From an uncultured archaeon (GTDB lineage Archaea > Aenigmatarchaeota > Aenigmatarchaeia > CG10238-14 > SCSR01): a stretch of 36,692 nucleotides of DNA. Location: positions 1-36,692 of the forward strand of contig CAYRSQ010000003.1 in assembly GCA_964427055.1 (NCBI GenBank), written 5' to 3'. The notes beneath the pieces were generated by a model. That model did no database searches, was not told the DNA's origin, and saw only the letters and a list, made by a program, of their open reading frames with translations. The translations under genes were made by a program, and so were the position numbers. This document shows, in pieces, positions 2,848-30,860 of the stretch; position 1 is the stretch's first letter, and the number at the start of each line of letters is the position of its first letter.

Positions 2848-3798
2848 CTATTGTTTGTTGAAACCGATTTGCTTTTTGGACAATTTAACTCTGTTGGTTC
2901 TGCCTCTCCGCTCAACTTCTATCAGCCCGCGCTCGGAGAGGCTCTTGACTACTCTGCTTACCTTTGCTTTAGAAAAGTTGCTCAAATCGACTATCTTCTT
3001 CTGCTTTATCTCGCCCTCTTTAGCGATAATGTCCATTATCTGTCTTTCGTACTCGTCTAGAATAGATAGGACTACTTCATCCGATTTTCTAAGGTGCCTG
3101 ATAATTATAAAGCCCAGCACCCCAGCCAAAGCTGCCCCGAAAAGGATGAAATGTCTCATTCTAAGCTGGAACCATATCGGAGGCTCGGCCTCCTCGTATA
3201 AAATCTCGAATGTCACTCCTTCTGTCTCGGAAATTTCTGACAATTCCCATGTCACCAGTATATTCTCTCCCAGTATGTGTGCGAATGCCTTATCTGGATA
3301 AGAAAGTATGCTAGATTCCGTGCTTTCACCCACGAGGAAATGATTTTTTGGCAATCTCACCGTGGCAGTTAGACTGGTAGTGTTCACATTTGGAGAAACC
3401 TCTGCATTGAAATAAAGAATCTTGTCTCCGAGTGCCTTGACAAAATCGACAGTCTCGAAATTTATGTTCAACTCCCTTTTCTGTTCGGTCAGCCCCATGG
3501 AACATGTTATGTCGCTAACTCCCGTTATCTCGATGCCGCAATCCACCGGACCCGCATTGCTGGTAGCATAGAAATTCTCCACTCGTCCGATTACCTTCAT
3601 ATTGAATGCCGTTTCTGGTTCCCAGAAAGTCATGGTGAGATTCACATAGCTTCTTCCCTCTTCGTCTATGATCACATATGCCTTATAGAATCTCAATTGG
3701 TCTGTCTCTGGATGAACTTGCGCGTGGACAAAGGATGTTGATAACAGTAATGATAACAAACATACAGAAATGAATAGTGATTTCGAATTGACAATCAT
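2848..3798 (-). CDS. Membrane-spanning winged-helix (MarR/TrmB-like) protein, COG2512-like: secreted N-domain, one TM, cytoplasmic wHTH
   Basis: Signal peptide (…LLLSTSFVHA/QV), about 190-aa beta-rich ectodomain, and TM helix FILFGAALAGVLGFIII. C-terminal wHTH is IMDIIAKEGEIKQKKIVDLSNFSKAKVSRVVKSLSERGLIEVERRGRTNRVKL. Confidence 0.65.
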   Translation of the reverse strand: MIVNSKSLFISVCLLSLLLSTSFVHAQVHPETDQLRFYKAYVIIDEEGRSYVNLTMTFWEPETAFNMKVIGRVENFYATSNAGPVDCGIEITGVSDITCSMGLTEQKRELNINFETVDFVKALGDKILYFNAEVSPNVNTTSLTATVRLPKNHFLVGESTESSILSYPDKAFAHILGENILVTWELSEISETEGVTFEILYEEAEPPIWFQLRMRHFILFGAALAGVLGFIIIRHLRKSDEVVLSILDEYERQIMDIIAKEGEIKQKKIVDLSNFSKAKVSRVVKSLSERGLIEVERRGRTNRVKLSKKQIGFNKQ

Positions 3799-3863: not shown

Positions 3864-4898
3864 TCATTCCACAATCACATCTATCTTGAACCCGCAATTG
3901 TAGCATCTATCCCCTATGAGATTGATTTCTTCGACCCTGGTGCCGGACCTCTTGATGACCATTTCCCTGCAGTTGTAGCAGTACGTGTTCTCGTCATCAT
4001 GCCCATCGACATTGCCTATGTAGATGTACCTCAAGCCCCTCATCTGCATCTCCCGCATGCACCTTTCCAGCGTCGGCACTGGCGTAGGAGGCAGATCCAT
4101 AAGCTGATAGTCGGGATGGAATCTCAATATATGTATCGGTATGGCAGAACCCAAATTCGCATTCACGTGTTCGGCGAACTTTCCGCAAAGCTCCGTGCTA
4201 TCTCCGAGCTGGGGAACTATCAGGTTTGTTATTTCGAAAAATATCCTCTGTCTTTTGAGCTGTCTCATCGTCTCGTATATGGGACTGACATCTGGCACGG
4301 ACATGAACTTCTTGTAGAATTCTGGATCCAGCGACGCTTTAATGTTGACAACTGCAGCGTCTATGTACTTAGATATCTTCTTCAGGGCGTCCACTTCCAT
4401 GTATCCATTGGTCACAAAAACGTTCATCAGGTTGTTCCTCTTGGCCAGCTTGGCAGTATCATGCACGAACTCGAAGAACATCGTGGGCTCGTTATAAGTG
4501 TACGATATGCTCTTGCAATTGTTATCTTCCGCCTGTTTCACCACATCTTCCGGGGTATATGTCTTGCCGGTGAAATTTTCCAGATACTTATCAGTCTGCT
4601 GGCTTATTTCCCAATTGTCGCAAAACTGGCACTTGAAGTTGCACCCGAAAGATGAGATTGAAAGTGTTTTTGAATTGGGGAAAAAATGGAAAAGCGGTTT
4701 TTTCTCCATCGGGTCCACGCTGACGTTTGTAAGCTTCCCATAGTTCATAGTGTAGAGCTGATTTTCCTCGTTTTTCCTGACATCGCAAAATCCGTACTTA
4801 CCCTTCCCTATGAAACATTTCCTGGCACAAAGACCACATCTTATGCCGTTCCTTTCCTTTTCCCACAACATAGCCTCGTGTAGCTTGTCATCCGCCAA
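3864..4898 (-). CDS. amrS: AmmeMemoRadiSam-system radical SAM enzyme (PflA-like activase family)
   Basis: N-terminal CGLCARKC...GFC cluster, canonical CNFKCQFCDNW (CxxxCxxC) radical SAM motif, C-terminal CYNC...CYNC Zn-ribbon-like end, and overall length about 340 aa. Confidence 0.7.
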   Translation of the reverse strand: MADDKLHEAMLWEKERNGIRCGLCARKCFIGKGKYGFCDVRKNEENQLYTMNYGKLTNVSVDPMEKKPLFHFFPNSKTLSISSFGCNFKCQFCDNWEISQQTDKYLENFTGKTYTPEDVVKQAEDNNCKSISYTYNEPTMFFEFVHDTAKLAKRNNLMNVFVTNGYMEVDALKKISKYIDAAVVNIKASLDPEFYKKFMSVPDVSPIYETMRQLKRQRIFFEITNLIVPQLGDSTELCGKFAEHVNANLGSAIPIHILRFHPDYQLMDLPPTPVPTLERCMREMQMRGLRYIYIGNVDGHDDENTYCYNCREMVIKRSGTRVEEINLIGDRCYNCGFKIDVIVE

Positions 4899-5473: not shown

Positions 5474-5560
5474 GCGGCGATAGTCCAGTCTGGTTAAGAT
5501 ACGGCCCTGCCAATCCATAGCGGAACGGCCGCGACGCGGGTTCAAATCCCGCTCGCCGCA
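5474..5560 (+). tRNA. tRNA-Gly (anticodon GCC) with 13-nt intron (5513..5525) at canonical 37/38 position
   Basis: Acceptor GCGGCGA/TCGCCGC, anticodon stem CGGCC/GGCCG, loop C-T-GCC-A, T arm GCGGG-TTCAAAT-CCCGC. BHB: 4-bp helix CTGC(5507-5510):GCGG(5520-5523) flanked by 3-nt bulges CAA and AAC. Confidence 0.8.
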
Positions 5561-6117: not shown

Positions 6118-6167
6118 TTCTGATAACGTTTTTAAATTCAAACCTGATATTAATTAATCACGAATGT

Positions 6168-6303
6168 GCAGGGGTAGCGAAGCGGTCAAACGCGCTGGGC
6201 TCAAGATTATATTTTGAGCGCTGATTAAAGATGATGAAAGCGTGAGTGACATGAGAAACCCTGTGGCTTAGTGCCTTCGTGGGTTCGAATCCCACCCCCT
6301 GCA
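6168..6303 (+). tRNA. tRNA-Leu (anticodon CAA), type II with long variable arm, 52-nt intron (6206..6257)
   Basis: Acceptor GCAGGGG/CCCCTGC, D stem GCG/CGC, anticodon stem CTGGG/CCCTG (one U-U mismatch), loop CT-CAA-G. Long variable arm contains GGC…GCC. T arm GTGGG-TTCGAAT-CCCAC. BHB core: CTCA(32-35):TGAG(6252-6255) flanked by bulges AGA and AAA. Confidence 0.8.
6211..6237 (+). ncRNA. Intron-embedded box D'/C' K-loop-like guide element (antisense arm + CUGA + 6-nt loop + AUGAUGA)
   Basis: ATTTTGAGC(6211-6219) pairs with G31-U(6207). CTGA is at 6221-6224 and ATGATGA at 6231-6237. See finding. Confidence 0.4.
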
Positions 6304-6464
6304 CTTTAAAACCACAACGAACGTGTCTTTATTCTGAAATGAGATGCGGAAGTCGAACTTGTTCCAGATATTTTCTCAATTTACAATCGTCTGAAAACTA
6401 CTGATTCATCTATTTTCATGTGCTGAATCATGGAAAAAGAAAAAATGCTGGAGAAAATAAAAAA

Positions 6465-9643: not shown

Positions 9644-9919
9644 GCAGAGAGCTAGGTCTGGGTGATTAGGCCACACCTACTTCGGAAAACGGTCTTTAGG
9701 TCCGAACTGAACGGCCTTGAAAGGTGCAGTTGGTGTAAATCGACCCGGATTCCGGACTGAGAAGCCTTGCCTCTATCGATTTGGGCGTGTGTGAACCCCC
9801 CAGGGCAGGAATGCAGCAAGGATAAGCATTCGTTCAAATGCTATAGGGTAAACAGGGTGGAGAAAGGAACCCGGACAATCGGTCTATGTCACCTGTAACG
9901 ATCTTGGTCCGCTCTCTGC
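9644..9919 (+). ncRNA. Signal recognition particle RNA (archaeal 7S RNA)
   Basis: The 5' GCAGAGAGC and 3' GCTCTCTGC ends form a perfect 9-bp terminal helix. Alu-domain hairpin GGTCT-GGGTGATT-AGGCC has a GGUG loop. Helix-8 signature is CAGGGCA-GGAA-TGC-AGCA-AGG (9801-9821; compare E. coli CAGGUCC-GGAA-GGA-AGCAGCC-AAGG). No credible CDS in the region. Confidence 0.8.
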
Positions 9920-9923
9920 GCAA

Positions 9924-9936
9924 TTATTCTTTTTAT
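9924..9936 (+). terminator. Oligo-T archaeal terminator candidate after SRP RNA
   Basis: TTATTCTTTTTAT lies immediately 3' of the terminal helix. Confidence 0.35.
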
Positions 9937-11445: not shown

Positions 11446-12684
11446 ATGCGAGTGATAAGTGATTTCCATATACACAGCCGTTTCAGCTACGCGTGCAGCA
11501 AAAACATGGTCTTCGAAGAAATAGCCAAAAATGGGCTGCTCAAAGGATTGGATCTGATAGGGACAGGAGATATCACTCAGCCAGTCTGGTTTAAAGAAAT
11601 AAAAGATAAGCTGTCTCGAAATGAGACCGAACCTGGATCTGGCATATTCGATTATAATGGTATAAGATGGATGCTTACAACGGAACTATCAACCATATAT
11701 TCTCAGGACGGGAAAACCAGAAAAGTACATCACGTTATCCATGTGCCATCCGTGGAAGTAACAATCCAGATGAGAGAGCTCCTTGACAAACACGGTAAAC
11801 TGGACTTGGATGGCCGCCCTACGCTTACCAAGATAACTTCTCCTGAACTCGTGGAGGGATTGATGGAGATATCGGATGACATCTTGATATATCCGGCACA
11901 CACATGGACTAGTTGGTTCGGCGTGCTCGGGGAATTCTCAGGGTTCAATTCAATCGACGAGTGCTACGGCGACCAGACTAAACATGTCCATGCCATAGAA
12001 ACTGGGATGAGCAGCGACCCCTCGATGAACTGGAGGATAAAGTCTCTTGACAAGTTCACAATCCTGTCCAATTCGGATGCGCATAGCCCATGGGTATGGA
12101 GATTGGGAAGAGAAGCCAATGTCTTTGAATTGGACAACCTGACATACGATGAGATAAGCGATTCGATAAAGAAGAACGATCCTAAAAGATTGAAATACAC
12201 GATAGAAGTCGAACCTTCTTACGGCAAGTACCATTTCACCGGCCATAGGAAATGCGAAGTCAATCTGAGTCCATCTGTAGCCGCCAAATTGGGCAACATA
12301 TGCCCCGTATGCAAGAAGAAGATGACAATCGGCGTCATGCAAAGGGTCGAAAAGTTGGCGGACAGACCTGAAGGATATACACCTAAAGGTCGTATACCAT
12401 TCAAATCGTTGATTCCCCTCTATGAAATAATCTCATCCGTCACTGGAGTGAACAGGATGTATTCCAATCCCGTGATAATAAAACAGGACCGACTGATTGA
12501 AACATTCGGGAACGAATTGAAGGTGTTGCTGGATGCGAGCAAAGCTGACCTGATGAAAGCAACAGACAGGAAAATAGCAGACGCCATAATAAAAATAAGG
12601 GATGGGAAAGTCGGATATACGCCCGGCTACGATGGAGTGTATGGCGTGCCGATGTTCTCTGAAGATGCTAATAAAGAAGCTTAA
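11446..12684 (+). CDS. endoQ: Endonuclease Q-like PHP-domain nuclease (TIGR00375 family)
   Basis: N-terminal PHP motif DFHIHSRFSYACSKNM. Other motifs are VHHVIHVPS, YPAHTWTSWFG, LSNSDAHSPWVWRLGREANVFE and GKYHFTGHRKC. Zn-finger CPVCKKKMTIGV. Collinear with my recollection of Pyrococcus EndoQ. Confidence 0.65.
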   Translation: MRVISDFHIHSRFSYACSKNMVFEEIAKNGLLKGLDLIGTGDITQPVWFKEIKDKLSRNETEPGSGIFDYNGIRWMLTTELSTIYSQDGKTRKVHHVIHVPSVEVTIQMRELLDKHGKLDLDGRPTLTKITSPELVEGLMEISDDILIYPAHTWTSWFGVLGEFSGFNSIDECYGDQTKHVHAIETGMSSDPSMNWRIKSLDKFTILSNSDAHSPWVWRLGREANVFELDNLTYDEISDSIKKNDPKRLKYTIEVEPSYGKYHFTGHRKCEVNLSPSVAAKLGNICPVCKKKMTIGVMQRVEKLADRPEGYTPKGRIPFKSLIPLYEIISSVTGVNRMYSNPVIIKQDRLIETFGNELKVLLDASKADLMKATDRKIADAIIKIRDGKVGYTPGYDGVYGVPMFSEDANKEA

Positions 12685-25913: not shown

Positions 25914-26028
25914 GGGGTCGTCGTCTAACCTGGCAGGACATCAGGCTCCAGGTTTGTTGACTTGGAGCTTTGACTCCAACATGATAAGAAGAAACCTGCT
26001 GATGGGGGTTCAAATCCCTCCGACCCCA
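25914..26028 (+). tRNA. tRNA-Trp (anticodon CCA) with 42-nt intron (25952..25993)
   Basis: Acceptor GGGGTCG/CGACCCC, D arm GTCT-AACCTGGCA-GGAC, anticodon stem TCAGG/CCTGC (27:43 mismatch), loop CT-CCA-G, T arm GGGGG-TTCAAAT-CCCTC. BHB-like core: CTCC:GAAG (3 of 4 pairs) flanked by bulges AGG and AAA. Confidence 0.8.
25961..25987 (+). ncRNA. Intron-embedded box D'/C' K-loop-like guide element (antisense arm + UUGA + 7-nt loop + AUGAUAA)
   Basis: CTTGGAGC(25961-25968) pairs with G31-G(25952). TTGA is at 25970-25973 and ATGATAA at 25981-25987. See finding. Confidence 0.35.
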
Positions 26029-27250: not shown

Positions 27251-28093
27251 ATGGGAATATCCAATTTGTCTAAAGCTGTCAAAAAACTAGAAACTGTAGA
27301 CATACAGGGAGCCACGGAGATTGCTATATTCTCATTGAAGACACTGAGAAGGATTGTAAAGAGAAAGGGATTCGGAAAAGAATTCAACGAAGCATCCCGT
27401 AAACTTGAAAGAGCTAGGCCAACCGCAGTGGTATTGCACAATTGCCTAAATATCCTGAAACGGGAAAAAACCATAGATTCAATAAACAGATTGATTGAAA
27501 CACTGGAAACTTCAGACGAGAAAATCTCCGAGAATGGAATCAAGTGTTTTGGTAAGAAGTCCTACAGGCTATTAACCCATTGCCATTCTAGTGAAGCCAT
27601 AGCTATGATAAAGGGACTTAAAAATAAAGGGAAAAACCTGTCTGTCATTGTGACACAGACCGACCCATTGGAACAAGGAATCAAGACCGCGAAAGAATTG
27701 AGTGGACAGAAAATACCAACAACATTAATAATCGATTCGGCAGTCGGACACTTCATAAATGACATAGATGCATTCGTGTTCGGCACTGATGCCATTCGAA
27801 AGGAAGGAATTGTCAACAAGATAGGAACTAAACTATATGCCATTGCCGCAAAAGAGAACAAAAAACCTGTTTACATAGTCGGCAACAACTTGAAATTGGA
27901 CAGAAGAAGAGAATTTGAAATGGAACAAAGATCTCCCAATGAAATCAAGAGAGAACTTTCCAGGCCATATGACTTGAGAGGAATCGTTATAAAAAATCCT
28001 GCATTTGACATAACTCCATGGAAATACGTCACAAGAGTCATAACTGAAGAGGGTGTCTTCACTCCGTCACAAATACAGAGGATGTTAAGATGA
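27251..28093 (+). CDS. e2b2: Ribose-1,5-bisphosphate isomerase (eIF-2B alpha/beta/delta-like family)
   Basis: eIF-2B-family motifs VDIQGATEIA, LLTHCHSSEAI (catalytic Cys context) and VFGTDAIRKEG (Asp). Its stop overlaps the rbcL ATG (ATGA at 28090-28093). Confidence 0.75.
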   Translation: MGISNLSKAVKKLETVDIQGATEIAIFSLKTLRRIVKRKGFGKEFNEASRKLERARPTAVVLHNCLNILKREKTIDSINRLIETLETSDEKISENGIKCFGKKSYRLLTHCHSSEAIAMIKGLKNKGKNLSVIVTQTDPLEQGIKTAKELSGQKIPTTLIIDSAVGHFINDIDAFVFGTDAIRKEGIVNKIGTKLYAIAAKENKKPVYIVGNNLKLDRRREFEMEQRSPNEIKRELSRPYDLRGIVIKNPAFDITPWKYVTRVITEEGVFTPSQIQRMLR

Positions 28094-29310
28094 AGTACGA
28101 GGATTTCATAGACACGAAATACAAACCTAAAGGAAGAGACGTCGTGTGTGAATTTTTAGTAGAGCCTAACAAGGTGAATATGAAACATGCGGCAGGCGGG
28201 ATTGCTGCTGAAAGCTCCATAGGCACGTGGACAGAACTGGAGACCATGAAAACCAGCATCGAAAAGTTATCGGCTAAAGTATTCCAGATAAATGGGAACA
28301 AAATAGAAATCGCGTACCCACTTGATCTCTTTGAACTTGGAAACATGCCAAACCTGTTGAGCAGCGTTGCTGGGAATGTATTCGGACTCAAGGAGATTAG
28401 GAACCTCAGACTGAATGATATAGAATTTCCCAGAAGATTCGTTAAGAGTTTTGACGGTCCGAAATACGGGATCAGTGGTATCAGAAAACTAACTGGAGTA
28501 AAAGACAGACCATTTCTCGGAACCATAATAAAACCCAAATTGGGACTAAGTTCGATAGACCATTCGAAAATAGCATACGAAGCATGGATTGGAGGATGTG
28601 ACATAGTTAAAGACGACGAAAACCTGGCGAATCAAAATTTCAATAAATTTAGGACGAGGGTAACATCCACGCTGAAAAGCAGAGACAAAGCTGAGAAGGA
28701 AACTGGGGAAATGAAACTGTATATGGCAAACGTGACTGCAGAAACGAATGAGATGATAAAGCGAGCGAAGTTTCTTGAAAAAGAAGGCGGGAGATACGTC
28801 ATGGTCGACGTCCTCACAGTAGGATGGGGGGCGCTTCAGACATTAAGAAATGAGGACTTGGATATGGTACTTCATGGACACAGAGCAATGCATGCGGCCA
28901 TAACAAAGAACAAAAAACATGGAATCTCCATGAAAGTGTTAGCTAAACTATTAAGGATAGTAGGAGTAGACCAGTTGCATGTCGGGACTGGAATCGGTAA
29001 AATGAGTGAAAGCGTGCCCGAAGTCAGAGAAAATATAAGTGCACTGACTCAGACCCTTTACGGAACCAAAAAAACTATGCCTGTCGCTTCTGGAGGCATA
29101 CATCCGCTGTTGATACCGGATTTGATAAGTATTTTTGGGAAAGATGTTGTAATACAGATGGGAGGCGGCATACATGGACATCCCATGGGAACGGAATCCG
29201 GTTCCATTGCAGCTAGGCAGGCTCTGTTGTCCTGTAAGGACAACATTCCACTTAAAAAGTTTGCTAAGAGCCATAAAGAACTCGATGACGCAATAAGAAA
29301 ATGGAAATAG
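28090..29310 (+). CDS. rbcL: Ribulose-1,5-bisphosphate carboxylase large subunit, form III-like
   Basis: Active-site motifs GTIIKPKLGLS, GGCDIVKDDENL (carbamyl-Lys/Asp/Glu), LHGHRAMHAA, ASGGIHP and QMGGGIHGHP. Confidence 0.9.
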   Translation: MKYEDFIDTKYKPKGRDVVCEFLVEPNKVNMKHAAGGIAAESSIGTWTELETMKTSIEKLSAKVFQINGNKIEIAYPLDLFELGNMPNLLSSVAGNVFGLKEIRNLRLNDIEFPRRFVKSFDGPKYGISGIRKLTGVKDRPFLGTIIKPKLGLSSIDHSKIAYEAWIGGCDIVKDDENLANQNFNKFRTRVTSTLKSRDKAEKETGEMKLYMANVTAETNEMIKRAKFLEKEGGRYVMVDVLTVGWGALQTLRNEDLDMVLHGHRAMHAAITKNKKHGISMKVLAKLLRIVGVDQLHVGTGIGKMSESVPEVRENISALTQTLYGTKKTMPVASGGIHPLLIPDLISIFGKDVVIQMGGGIHGHPMGTESGSIAARQALLSCKDNIPLKKFAKSHKELDDAIRKWK

Positions 29311-30860
29311 TGATAATAGTGAAATTGAAAGTCAAGATACTGGGAATGAGCGCTGGAGACAAGCCTATTGTGGTTCTAAATAACGACACGGCTGAAGATA
29401 TGGGAGTGATAAGTCTCAATAGAATTGTATTGGAACGCGGAGAAAAAAGTGTAATCGGCATTGTTAACACTTCTAAGAACGTGGTTGGAAAGGGGGAAAT
29501 AGGACTGTTCGATGAGATAATCAAAAACATGGACTTGAAAAATGGCATGGATATATCTGTGAAAATTTCCAGTCAACCAGCTTCGATAGAACACATAAAG
29601 TCAAGATTGAAGGGGAGAAAACTCAGAGAGGATGAAATATTTGAAATTGTAAAGGATGTAGTTGACAATAGACTCAGCGAAATTGAAATCTCAACTTTCG
29701 TTACTTCCCTTAACAACCATCCGATGGACATAGATGAGATTGTCGGGATGACAAGGGCCATGGTCAAAACCGGGAAGACATTGGAATTGAATAGTTCATA
29801 CATCGTCGATAAGCATTCTATAGGAGGCGTTCCCGGAGATAAGACGACACTGCTCGTCGTGCCCATAATAGCGGCATGTGGAATAACGATACCAAAGACT
29901 TCGTCTAGGGCTATAACCTCTGCAGCTGGCACTGGGGACAGGGCTGAAACCTTGATGCCAGTAGAACTGAGTGTAGAGGAGATGAAGACCGTCGTGAAAA
30001 AGACTAATGGGTGTATAGTATGGGGAGGGTCACTCGAACTAGCCCCCGCAGACGACATCTTCATCAAAGTCGAATATCCACTATCTATAGACCCTATGAT
30101 GATACCTTCCATAATGAGCAAAAAGAAGGCAGTCGGCGCTGAATATCTACTCATAGACATTCCGTGCGGGAGAGGAACTAAGGTAAAAAGCATGGGGGAT
30201 GCTAATTTCCTGGCAAGAGACTTCATAGAGATTGGTAAAAGGTTGGGAATCACCACAAGATGTGCTATAACGTATGGAGAACAGCCCATAGGATACACGA
30301 TTGGTGCCGGACTGGAGGCCAAGGAAGCATTAGAAGTATTGATGAGGCAACGTAACGTACCAGACCTTTTGGAGAAAGCCAAGGGCATATCAAAAATTCT
30401 TCTGAACATGATAGGAAAAGATGGTGACAGAATGGTGGAAGATGTTTTCAAATCCGGAAAAGCCGAGGAGAAACTCAGAGAGATTATATTTGAACAAGGA
30501 GGGGATTCTGAAATAACACCAGACGATATACCTATAGGTAAGTACGGGCTTGACGTGGTATCTGAAAGTTCAGGGCATGTTCTATGGATGAACAATCACC
30601 AATTGGCATCAATAGCGAGGGCGGCAGGATCTCCAAAAGATAAGGGTGCCGGAATAGAACTTTATAAAAAAATAGGGGACAAAATCGATAAGGGAGAAAG
30701 ACTGTTCACCATATACTCGGAGAAGACGAGAAAGCTTAAACACGCAAAGGAAAAATTGGAGGAAGAATATCCGATAGAAATTGGTGAACGAAGAAGAATG
30801 CTGATAAGAGAGATTTCTGAACAGAATCCGATTAAAAAACCTTTCCTGCTAGAAAGCTGA
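29301..30860 (+). CDS. deoA: AMP phosphorylase (thymidine phosphorylase family)
   Basis: N-terminal KLKVKILGMSAGDKPIVVLNNDTAEDMGV domain typical of archaeal AMPpase, glycosyl-transferase-family-3 motif HSIGGVPGDKTTLLVVPIIAACG, and C-terminal alpha/beta domain. GTG 29319 just after the rbcL stop is an alternative start. Confidence 0.85.
   Translation: MEIVIIVKLKVKILGMSAGDKPIVVLNNDTAEDMGVISLNRIVLERGEKSVIGIVNTSKNVVGKGEIGLFDEIIKNMDLKNGMDISVKISSQPASIEHIKSRLKGRKLREDEIFEIVKDVVDNRLSEIEISTFVTSLNNHPMDIDEIVGMTRAMVKTGKTLELNSSYIVDKHSIGGVPGDKTTLLVVPIIAACGITIPKTSSRAITSAAGTGDRAETLMPVELSVEEMKTVVKKTNGCIVWGGSLELAPADDIFIKVEYPLSIDPMMIPSIMSKKKAVGAEYLLIDIPCGRGTKVKSMGDANFLARDFIEIGKRLGITTRCAITYGEQPIGYTIGAGLEAKEALEVLMRQRNVPDLLEKAKGISKILLNMIGKDGDRMVEDVFKSGKAEEKLREIIFEQGGDSEITPDDIPIGKYGLDVVSESSGHVLWMNNHQLASIARAAGSPKDKGAGIELYKKIGDKIDKGERLFTIYSEKTRKLKHAKEKLEEEYPIEIGERRRMLIREISEQNPIKKPFLLES

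Follow-up and report, generated by a model that had tools for sequence, protein, structure and literature searches.

The 36,692-nt stretch of DNA analysed here (the window; contig CAYRSQ010000003.1 of GenBank assembly GCA_964427055.1, from an uncultured archaeon of the Aenigmatarchaeota) carries a tRNA-Leu(CAA) gene with a 52-nt intron, which is the subject of this study. In the cloverleaf read from the sequence, the acceptor stem is GCAGGGG/CCCCUGC, the anticodon stem CUGGG/CCCUG with one U-U and the anticodon loop CUCAAGA, and the Rfam alignment of 6168-6303 places a 55-nt insertion within this loop. The intron reads ATTAT-ATTTTGAGC-G-CTGA-TTAAAG-ATGATGA-AAGCGTGAGTGAC-ATGAGAA and contains an arrangement of guide, spacer base, box D', loop and box C' that is referred to below as the module (Table 1). 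Two features of box C/D guides are found in it: the D' and C' boxes (CUGA-N6-AUGAUGA, 6221-6237) lie within the 3-9 nt at which they are able to form a kink-loop (K-loop), and an antisense element with its target in the N+5 register lies upstream of D'. This element (6211-6219) pairs with 6199-6207 over 9 bp including one G-U, the hairpin belongs to the minimum free energy (MFE) fold of the entire precursor, and G6216, the fifth base 5' of CUGA, lies opposite C34 (6202), the predicted site of 2'-O-methylation. A preliminary description, made from the sequence alone, had given the length of the intron, the boxes, the guide, the N+5 register and the pairing in the bulge-helix-bulge (BHB) splicing structure, and all of these proved exact to the base. 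The observation is confirmed, and the interpretation placed on it is supported by the sequence comparisons reported here.

Table 1. Coordinates and composition of the tRNA, intron and module features (positions refer to the window, or to the named locus where one is given)
Feature	Position	Strand	Details and evidence
tRNA-Leu(CAA) gene	6168-6303	+	Rfam tRNA model, 45.3 bits
5' exon, tRNA positions 1-37	6168-6205	+	anticodon C34-A35-A36 at 6202-6204; Rfam and cloverleaf reading
Target strand, G31-C32-U33-C34-A35-A36-G37 and first two intron bases	6199-6207	+	MFE hairpin, pair counts in alignment A1
Intron, 52 nt, canonical 37/38 site	6206-6257	+	sequence, Rfam alignment, orthologous introns
Guide (antisense element) AUUUUGAGC	6211-6219	+	sequence, fold, pair counts, automatic scan
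Spacer base between guide and D', single, unpaired	6220-6220	+	alignment A1 and automatic scan
Box D' CUGA	6221-6224	+	sequence; family consensus YWGA, GA invariant
6-nt loop UUAAAG closing the K-loop	6225-6230	+	sequence
Box C' AUGAUGA	6231-6237	+	sequence; AUGA invariant in 10 modules
Variable filler between C' and BHB strand	6238-6251	+	unconserved; neither a D box nor another guide
BHB strand; UGAG pairs with C32-A35, AA/A38 is the 3' bulge	6252-6257	+	sequence, BHB-constrained fold
3' exon, tRNA positions 38-73	6258-6303	+	Rfam
tRNA-splicing endonuclease (EndA), 205 aa	18454-19071	-	N- and C-terminal EndA domains; Pfam tRNA_int_endo 1e-26, tRNA_int_endo_N 1e-9
tRNA-Trp(CCA)	25914-26028	+	42-nt intron 25952-25993
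Trp module	guide 25961-25968, spacer 25969, D' 25970-25973, loop 25974-25980, C' 25981-25987		guide CUUGGAGC, D'-like UUGA, C'-like AUGAUAA
L041 tRNA-Cys(GCA)	2927-3027	+	intron ACUGGUAU-G-CUGA-UUA-AUGAUGC
Leu module, window and L030			guide UUUUGAGC, spacer G, D' CUGA, loop UUAAAG, C' AUGAUGA
Leu module, L001			guide UUUUGAGC, spacer G, D' CUGA, loop UUAAAC, C' AUGAUGA
Leu module, L007			guide UUUUGAGC, spacer G, D' CUGA, loop UUUCGAG, C' AUGACGA; only AA before BHB strand
Leu module, L002			guide CUUGAGU, spacer G, D' CAGA, loop UUAGUUGAAG, C' AUGAAGA; N31 is A, last guide base U
Leu module, L039			guide CUUGAGC, spacer U, D' UUGA, loop CUCGAUGG, C' AUGAGAU
Leu module, L042			guide CUUGAGC, spacer U, D' UUGA, 16-nt hairpin loop, C' AUGAAAA
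Leu module, L043 and L044	gene 12335-12449 (L043)	-	guide UUGAGC, spacer A, D' CUGA, loop UCA, C' AUGAUGU; intron 29 nt (L043), apparently at 30/31

Relatives of the locus were reached through the ADP-forming acetyl-CoA synthetase (ACS) of the window, whose best homologues are at most 61% identical and, where named, come from Candidatus Aenigmatarchaeota (DPANN). Synteny is conserved in the contigs around these homologues, with tRNA-Leu(CAA) at the equivalent place. The module was found in the syntenic Leu genes of seven lineages (the window, L001, L007, L002, L039, L042 and L043), with the consensus guide, 1 nt, YWGA, 3-16 nt, AUGAnnn, the ACS of the other six being 55-61% identical to that of the window; the K-loop with a cis guide and C34 at N+5, as first proposed for the window alone, is thereby supported. 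Outside the module the introns are unalignable, as seen for the window (AAGCGUGAGUGAC) against L001 (CGCGCGUGCGGGUA), while L007 has nothing at this place. In five further contigs (L036, L037, L038, L041 and L045) the tRNA-Leu(CAA) gene was not reached or is absent. A DNA pattern from the 5' exon extended the sample by another 26 DPANN tRNA-Leu(CAA) genes from GTDB genomes and by six metagenome loci, two of them informative, namely L030, a near-identical strain, and L031, on the same contig as L002. None of about 26 Leu(CAA) genes from Iainarchaeota, Micrarchaeota, Nanoarchaeota and Woesearchaeota has the module, whether intron-bearing or not, and nothing was found in an ACS-anchored protein scan of GTDB genomes or in a scan of viral contigs with the tRNA-Leu 3' exon.

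Two of the orthologues depart from the common form. The D'-C' spacer of L042 has a 5-bp hairpin of its own and would give a true K-turn. In L043 and L044 the intron appears to lie at 30/31, upstream of the anticodon, which would amount to a relocation with the guide retained and C34 still at N+5. ARAGORN instead reads the L043 gene as tRNA-Leu(CAG), its intron following the first base of the anticodon. This solution was judged less likely than Leu(CAA) with a 30/31 intron on several grounds: the gene is syntenic, its CUCAAGA loop is identical, its ACAGG/CCUGU stem has Watson-Crick pairs throughout and, by hand, a CGAC/GUCG central helix can be read.

An alignment of orthologous introns, which the preliminary description had proposed as a check, went in its favour: the guide, the 1-nt register, D' and C' are kept, guide and target change together, and the first base of D' covaries with the sixth of C' (D'1:C'6). 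This alignment (A1) has 26 columns assigned by position (seven target, seven guide, the spacer, D' and C') and ten distinct sequences. Among these sequences, which are related and in which the Cys target was chosen by complementarity and the Leu and Trp targets by tRNA position alone, 98.6% of the guide/target positions pair, a figure that falls to 27-45% when the partners are slid by one to three columns. Both sides have changed in four of the seven guide/target pairs, for example from G31-C to A31-U (L002) and from A35-U to C35-G (Trp), such that the guide tracks its target, with C becoming U where N31 changes from G to A in L002 and UUG becoming UGG in tRNA-Trp. D'1:C'6 is never unpaired: five sequences have C-G, four have U-A and one has U-G. 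In a box C/D K-turn the non-canonical stem is expected to be closed by a Watson-Crick pair. The observed covariation score was reached by none of 500 shuffles, and the GA of D', the AUGA of C', the 1-nt spacer and the N+5 register are invariant in all ten modules.

The same design recurs in other tRNA introns. The tRNA-Trp(CCA) intron of the window reads GUUUGUUGA-CUUGGAGC-U-UUGA-CUCCAAC-AUGAUAA-GAAGAA; its guide is complementary to G31-C-U-C-C-A-G37, and G25965, the fifth base 5' of UUGA, pairs with C34 (25948). The Trp orthologues in L046 and L047-L049 retain the module, their neighbouring MBL gene being 74% and 65% identical to that of the window. In the tRNA-Cys(GCA) intron of L041 the guide pairs with AUACCGGU over the 3' splice junction (AUA/CCGGU), with C39 at N+5, and a guide of this kind requires an unspliced precursor as its substrate. 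No module is found in the intronless C34 tRNAs Thr(CGU) and Val(CAC) of the window or in its short-intron tRNA-Gly. At the level of sequence, these cases support a small family of half-mer guides that are carried by tRNA introns of the clade. The window tRNA-Gly(GCC) at 5474-5560 has an intron of about 14 nt without boxes; the tRNA-Gly orthologue of L001 (12680-12797) spans 118 nt, which points to an intron that is longer or lies at another site.

The anticodon bases used by the guide are also those needed for splicing. UGAG (6252-6255) forms a 4-bp central helix with C32-A35 (6200-6203), flanked by the bulges AG/A and AA/A, so that the window Leu intron has the 4-bp helix and two 3-nt bulges of an archaeal BHB intron, although its outer helix is weak. 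As had been proposed at the outset, the guide fold excludes the splicing fold, C32-A35 being used by both conformers. When the anticodon arm and intron were folded, the guide conformation reached -13.0 kcal/mol and the forced BHB -12.2 kcal/mol, which makes the two nearly isoenergetic. A similar competition is found in the window tRNA-Trp, and, as in a cis guide of the pre-tRNA-Trp type, the host's own anticodon arm is the target and the guide and BHB folds lie within 1-5 kcal/mol of each other.

Some further observations concern the splicing structure. An N34-A mismatch in the BHB central helix is conserved in most lineages (Leu of L002, L039 and L042; Trp of the window, 25988-25991; Cys of L041), where UAAG, UAGG or GAAG stands opposite CUCA, CUCC or CUGC, whereas the window Leu intron has a perfect UGAG. 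Position 35 covaries with its BHB partner, being A-U in Leu and C-G in Trp and Cys. The EndA subunit of the window looks alpha-type, judged by its size, rather than the three-unit epsilon2 splicing endonuclease described for some DPANN; nevertheless, the BHBs of the clade with this alpha-sized EndA are relaxed, and one intron at least appears to lie at a non-canonical position. The D'-C' spacer often holds a near-copy of the anticodon loop that is able to pair with the guide, such as CUCCAA in the window Trp intron (25974-25979), CUCGA in L039 (about 9905-9925, minus strand) and UUCAAG in L042 (about 4795-4830, minus strand), and L043 shows pairing between the 5' portion of its intron and the spacer plus C'. 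These decoys suggest a two-state design, in which the guide may be parked while the BHB forms and the anticodon is freed.

Considering these features together, the Leu intron is probably a natural, self-targeting box C'/D' guide with a single K-loop, making Cm34 (2'-O-methylated C34) on its own pre-tRNA. CUGA, AUGAUGA and the 6-nt loop would fold into a K-loop with tandem sheared G-A pairs, a U-U and a Watson-Crick C1-G6; L7Ae would bind it, and Nop5-fibrillarin would then dock on the L7Ae-bound K-loop. Past the one spacer base, the 8-9 nt upstream of D' would pair with G31-G37 of their own precursor and thereby bring the ribose of C34 opposite the fifth guide base, so that Cm34 would be made on the unspliced precursor; alternatively, the excised intron could act in trans on another precursor. 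The precursor would thereafter refold, with C32-A35 pairing with UGAG to give the BHB cut by EndA. The binding of L7Ae, Nop5 and fibrillarin, the methyl transfer, its order relative to splicing and the sufficiency of a single K-loop are parts of the model that we infer. It is conceivable that a single K-loop suffices if two half-mer precursors share one Nop5 dimer, and that tethering by the hairpin offsets the specificity lost in single-site ribonucleoproteins (RNPs). The fixed spacer, the K-turn covariation, the retargeting in each host and the survival of the module at another intron site make a K-loop recruiting L7Ae and Nop5-fibrillarin the simplest account of the data.

Several findings weigh against this account. 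The boxes of several orthologues are degenerate (CAGA, UUGA, AUGAAAA), and in L007 only 2 nt remain between C' and the BHB strand. The covariance-model check that had been proposed for the pre-tRNA failed to recover the guide, as Rfam run on 6150-6320 returned the tRNA model only and no C/D family even at E<=10, and a strict four-box C/D small RNA (sRNA) scan of the window gave no match, as did the shuffles. With only 6-11 bp, the guide duplexes are at or below the 10-12 bp that is usual for C/D guides, and the hairpin loops that close them measure 3-7 nt. There is no RUGAUGA at the 5' end of the Leu intron and no CUGA at its 3' end, and the terminal-box candidates are unconserved in L001, L007, L002, L039 and L042; the preliminary description had already called the intron a half-mer without terminal C/D boxes, and since its degenerate candidates AAGATTA and ATGA/GTGA are not conserved, that description stands. 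Bipartite symmetry is likewise lacking, with one guide only and a region 3' of C' that is unconserved or absent. As two defining features thus fail, the terminal C/D motif and the second guide, the intron would work like a C/D guide and is not a canonical member of the class. No genes for fibrillarin, Nop5 or L7Ae were found within the window or the 396 kb of fetched loci, the latter searched for fibrillarin and L7Ae by tblastn with M. jannaschii sequences. Fibrillarin (COG1889) and Nop5 (COG1498) serve as near-universal archaeal single-copy markers (PMC9258230), and all three proteins are assumed to be present in this genome. On the biochemical side, archaeal C/D RNPs are reported in vitro to need juxtaposed C/D and C'/D' motifs, and, in what is the main argument against the proposal, a fully single-site RNP is described as active but without site specificity (PMC1635284).

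A few other candidates were considered around the intron and rejected. A second guide or terminal C/D motif in its 3' part (AAGCGUGAGUGAC followed by AUGA) falls in the region that is unconserved in L001 and absent in L007. The complement of AAGCGUGAGUGAC, compared by hand with the D-loop, matches at 10 of 12 positions and mismatches at the N+5 base. CUGA-A-AUGAGAU, at about 6333-6345 and 30 nt 3' of tRNA-Leu, has a spacer too short for a K-loop; it is present in the near-identical L030 and not in L001.

Could the resemblance to a guide be a matter of chance, or the module a functionless, decaying relic of a full C/D intron? The boxes are short, and relaxed patterns of them are common in coding DNA of the clade, where a scan of 197 kb gave 58 matches; a loose scan for cis guides has a background of about 12 matches in shuffled DNA of the same 197 kb. 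The background of these scans in coding sequence is high, and only the matches in tRNA introns are credible. CTGA-N3-9-RTGATGA, however, matches just once when both strands of the 36.7-kb window are scanned, against 0.53 matches expected, and it is the Leu intron that holds this match. In 1,000,000 shuffles of this intron the strict boxes arose at a frequency of 3.9e-4, and relaxed boxes together with a 7-bp guide in the N+5 register at 5.7e-5. Such a probability, about 6e-5 for one intron, and the recurrence of the module with compensatory changes in seven Leu, three Trp and one Cys lineages, where the adjoining intron sequence has diverged past alignment, make coincidence or decay extremely improbable; protein identities of 55-74% indicate that the contigs are related and are not near-identical strains. 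A helix between anticodon and intron could also serve an intron-dependent protein-only enzyme of the Trm4/NSUN2 type, or stabilise the precursor, with CUGA and AUGA incidental. In yeast and human, the modification of C34 in tRNA-Leu(CAA) is known to depend on the intron (PMC4090602), and the guide helix is the most stable local structure, but this explanation is very unlikely, as it does not account for the invariant GA and AUGA, the D'1:C'6 covariation and the fixed spacer, nor for the recurrence in Trp and Cys with different guides and the persistence of the module at 30/31.

Another reading is a K-loop that binds L7Ae next to a helix that masks the anticodon, acting as a checkpoint of folding and splicing, a chaperone or a protection without any methyl transfer. 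The K-loop signature and its covariation show a selected K-turn-like fold only, and not the action of fibrillarin; the guide hairpin rivals the BHB in energy, the decoys (CUCCAA in Trp, CUCGA in L039 and UUCAAG in L042) resemble a switch, and half-mers are poor or non-specific enzymes in vitro (PMC1635284). A pure switch, on the other hand, needs no 1-nt spacing that places N34 (N39 in Cys) at the fifth guide base in ten of ten modules, and in other organisms the wobble C of the hosts tRNA-Leu(CAA) and tRNA-Trp is a C/D target, whether predicted or known (PMC7994747), so that this alternative is considered unlikely. If methylation does take place, the excised intron, linear or circular, may be the active form, working in trans on tRNA, on a precursor or on another RNA such as rRNA, with the cis hairpin as a by-product. 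A trans or intermolecular mode of action was later reported for the RNP of the tRNA-Trp intron in Haloferax (PMC7994747, citing Singh et al. 2004; PMC4090602), and archaeal introns are often circularised (PMC7994747). Since the guide tracks the anticodon arm of its own host, including N31 and the intron bases i1-i2 (window and L007), and since the Cys guide bridges the intron-exon junction, such a role appears distinctly unlikely, and methylation of the host precursor itself is the reading that we retain.

The remaining genes of the window agree with an archaeal origin and include topoisomerase VI, a RuBisCO III/AMP phosphorylase/R15P isomerase cluster, Alba, EndA and an archaeal signal recognition particle (SRP) RNA. 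At 27251-30860 an IF-2B-family protein, a form III RuBisCO and a three-domain nucleoside-phosphorylase-type protein are contiguous, in an order kept in L046-L049; the first is probably ribose-1,5-bisphosphate isomerase and the last probably AMP phosphorylase, and together the genes would make up the archaeal AMP salvage pathway. The SRP RNA (9645-9918) scores 97.6 bits, barely over the Rfam threshold of 96.5 bits. At about 274 nt it is shorter than the 317-nt model, of which 38 positions in a row are reduced to 2 nt; L001, L002, L036 and L038 have an SRP RNA of the same size.

Guides for N34 are known from other archaea. In Pyrococcus, four C/D sRNAs are predicted for N34 of tRNA-Leu(CAA), Leu(UAA), Met and Trp, one of them being the Trp intron, and in Haloferax extracts the Trp intron was shown to guide Cm34 and Um39 (PMC7994747, PMC7668247). 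The Trp intron, which encodes the modification unit for its own tRNA, has been termed a 'unique example' in a 2014 review (PMC4090602). The module shares with these euryarchaeal pre-tRNA-Trp introns (Pyrococcus sR50; Haloferax) a 37/38 intron in a C34 tRNA with C34 at N+5 (PMC7994747, PMC4090602). Both also have an antisense element just 5' of D' that pairs with the anticodon loop, with guide and BHB folds that exclude each other. The C39 guide of the L041 Cys intron resembles the second guide of the Haloferax Trp intron in its position 39 target and in bridging the 3' splice junction. The known Trp introns, however, have terminal C/D motifs and form full double guides over about 65-105 nt, whereas the present introns of 29-57 nt have one K-loop and one guide; they occur in tRNA-Leu(CAA), with Trp and Cys as further hosts in the clade, and the organism belongs to the DPANN. 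The 42-nt Trp intron of the window is far below the approximately 65 nt of full C/D Trp introns.

Details of the Haloferax volcanii pre-tRNA-Trp intron are reportedly given by Clouet d'Orval et al. 2001. The H. volcanii sR-tMet is likewise said, by Joardar et al. 2011, to guide Cm34 of the intron-containing elongator pre-tRNA-Met and to have an atypical C'/D' motif that is still bound by L7Ae. Unlike the module, sR-tMet has a gene of its own, and its terminal C/D motif, which is missing here, is normal. The Pyrococcus sRNAs share the predicted target C34 of Leu(CAA) and the N+5 rule (PMC7994747, PMC7668247), but they are free-standing, two-motif RNAs acting in trans, as opposed to a one-motif guide inside the intron of its substrate. 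The engineered half-mer RNPs likewise have a single K-turn with a single guide, and they both assemble and methylate in vitro (PMC1635284); these are synthetic, and the single-site RNP has lost site specificity, whereas the natural module is tethered by its hairpin to the substrate, which may supply the missing ruler. The eukaryotic m5C34 modification by Trm4/NSUN2 concerns the same tRNA and the same nucleotide and requires an anticodon-pairing intron (PMC4090602), but it is a base methylation by a protein-only enzyme, without K-turn or guide rule. In the literature search no report was found of a guide in a tRNA-Leu(CAA) intron, nor of natural half-mers. The self-guide described so far for tRNA-Trp alone is most likely extended here to tRNA-Leu(CAA).

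We further propose, tentatively and short of favouring it, that this Aenigmatarchaeota-like DPANN clade may have reduced its guides for tRNA 2'-O-methylation to intron-borne half-mers with a single K-loop, in Leu(CAA), Trp(CCA) and Cys(GCA) at least; that a tethered one-motif RNA may suffice for site-specific action; and that the need for a guide may keep the introns in place even when they move from 37/38 to 30/31. For annotators of tRNA genes, the module is a recognisable motif for introns that are otherwise overlooked, given that ARAGORN, run with the intron option off, finds none of the three tRNAs of the window that have introns, tRNA-Leu(CAA) included. If the proposal is true, it would offer a natural counter-example to the rule of two juxtaposed motifs, with a minimal system for the measuring of methylation sites, and a case of convergence with eukaryotes in the intron-dependent C34 modification of tRNA-Leu(CAA). 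It would also provide a functional reason for the retention of tRNA introns in genome-reduced archaea.

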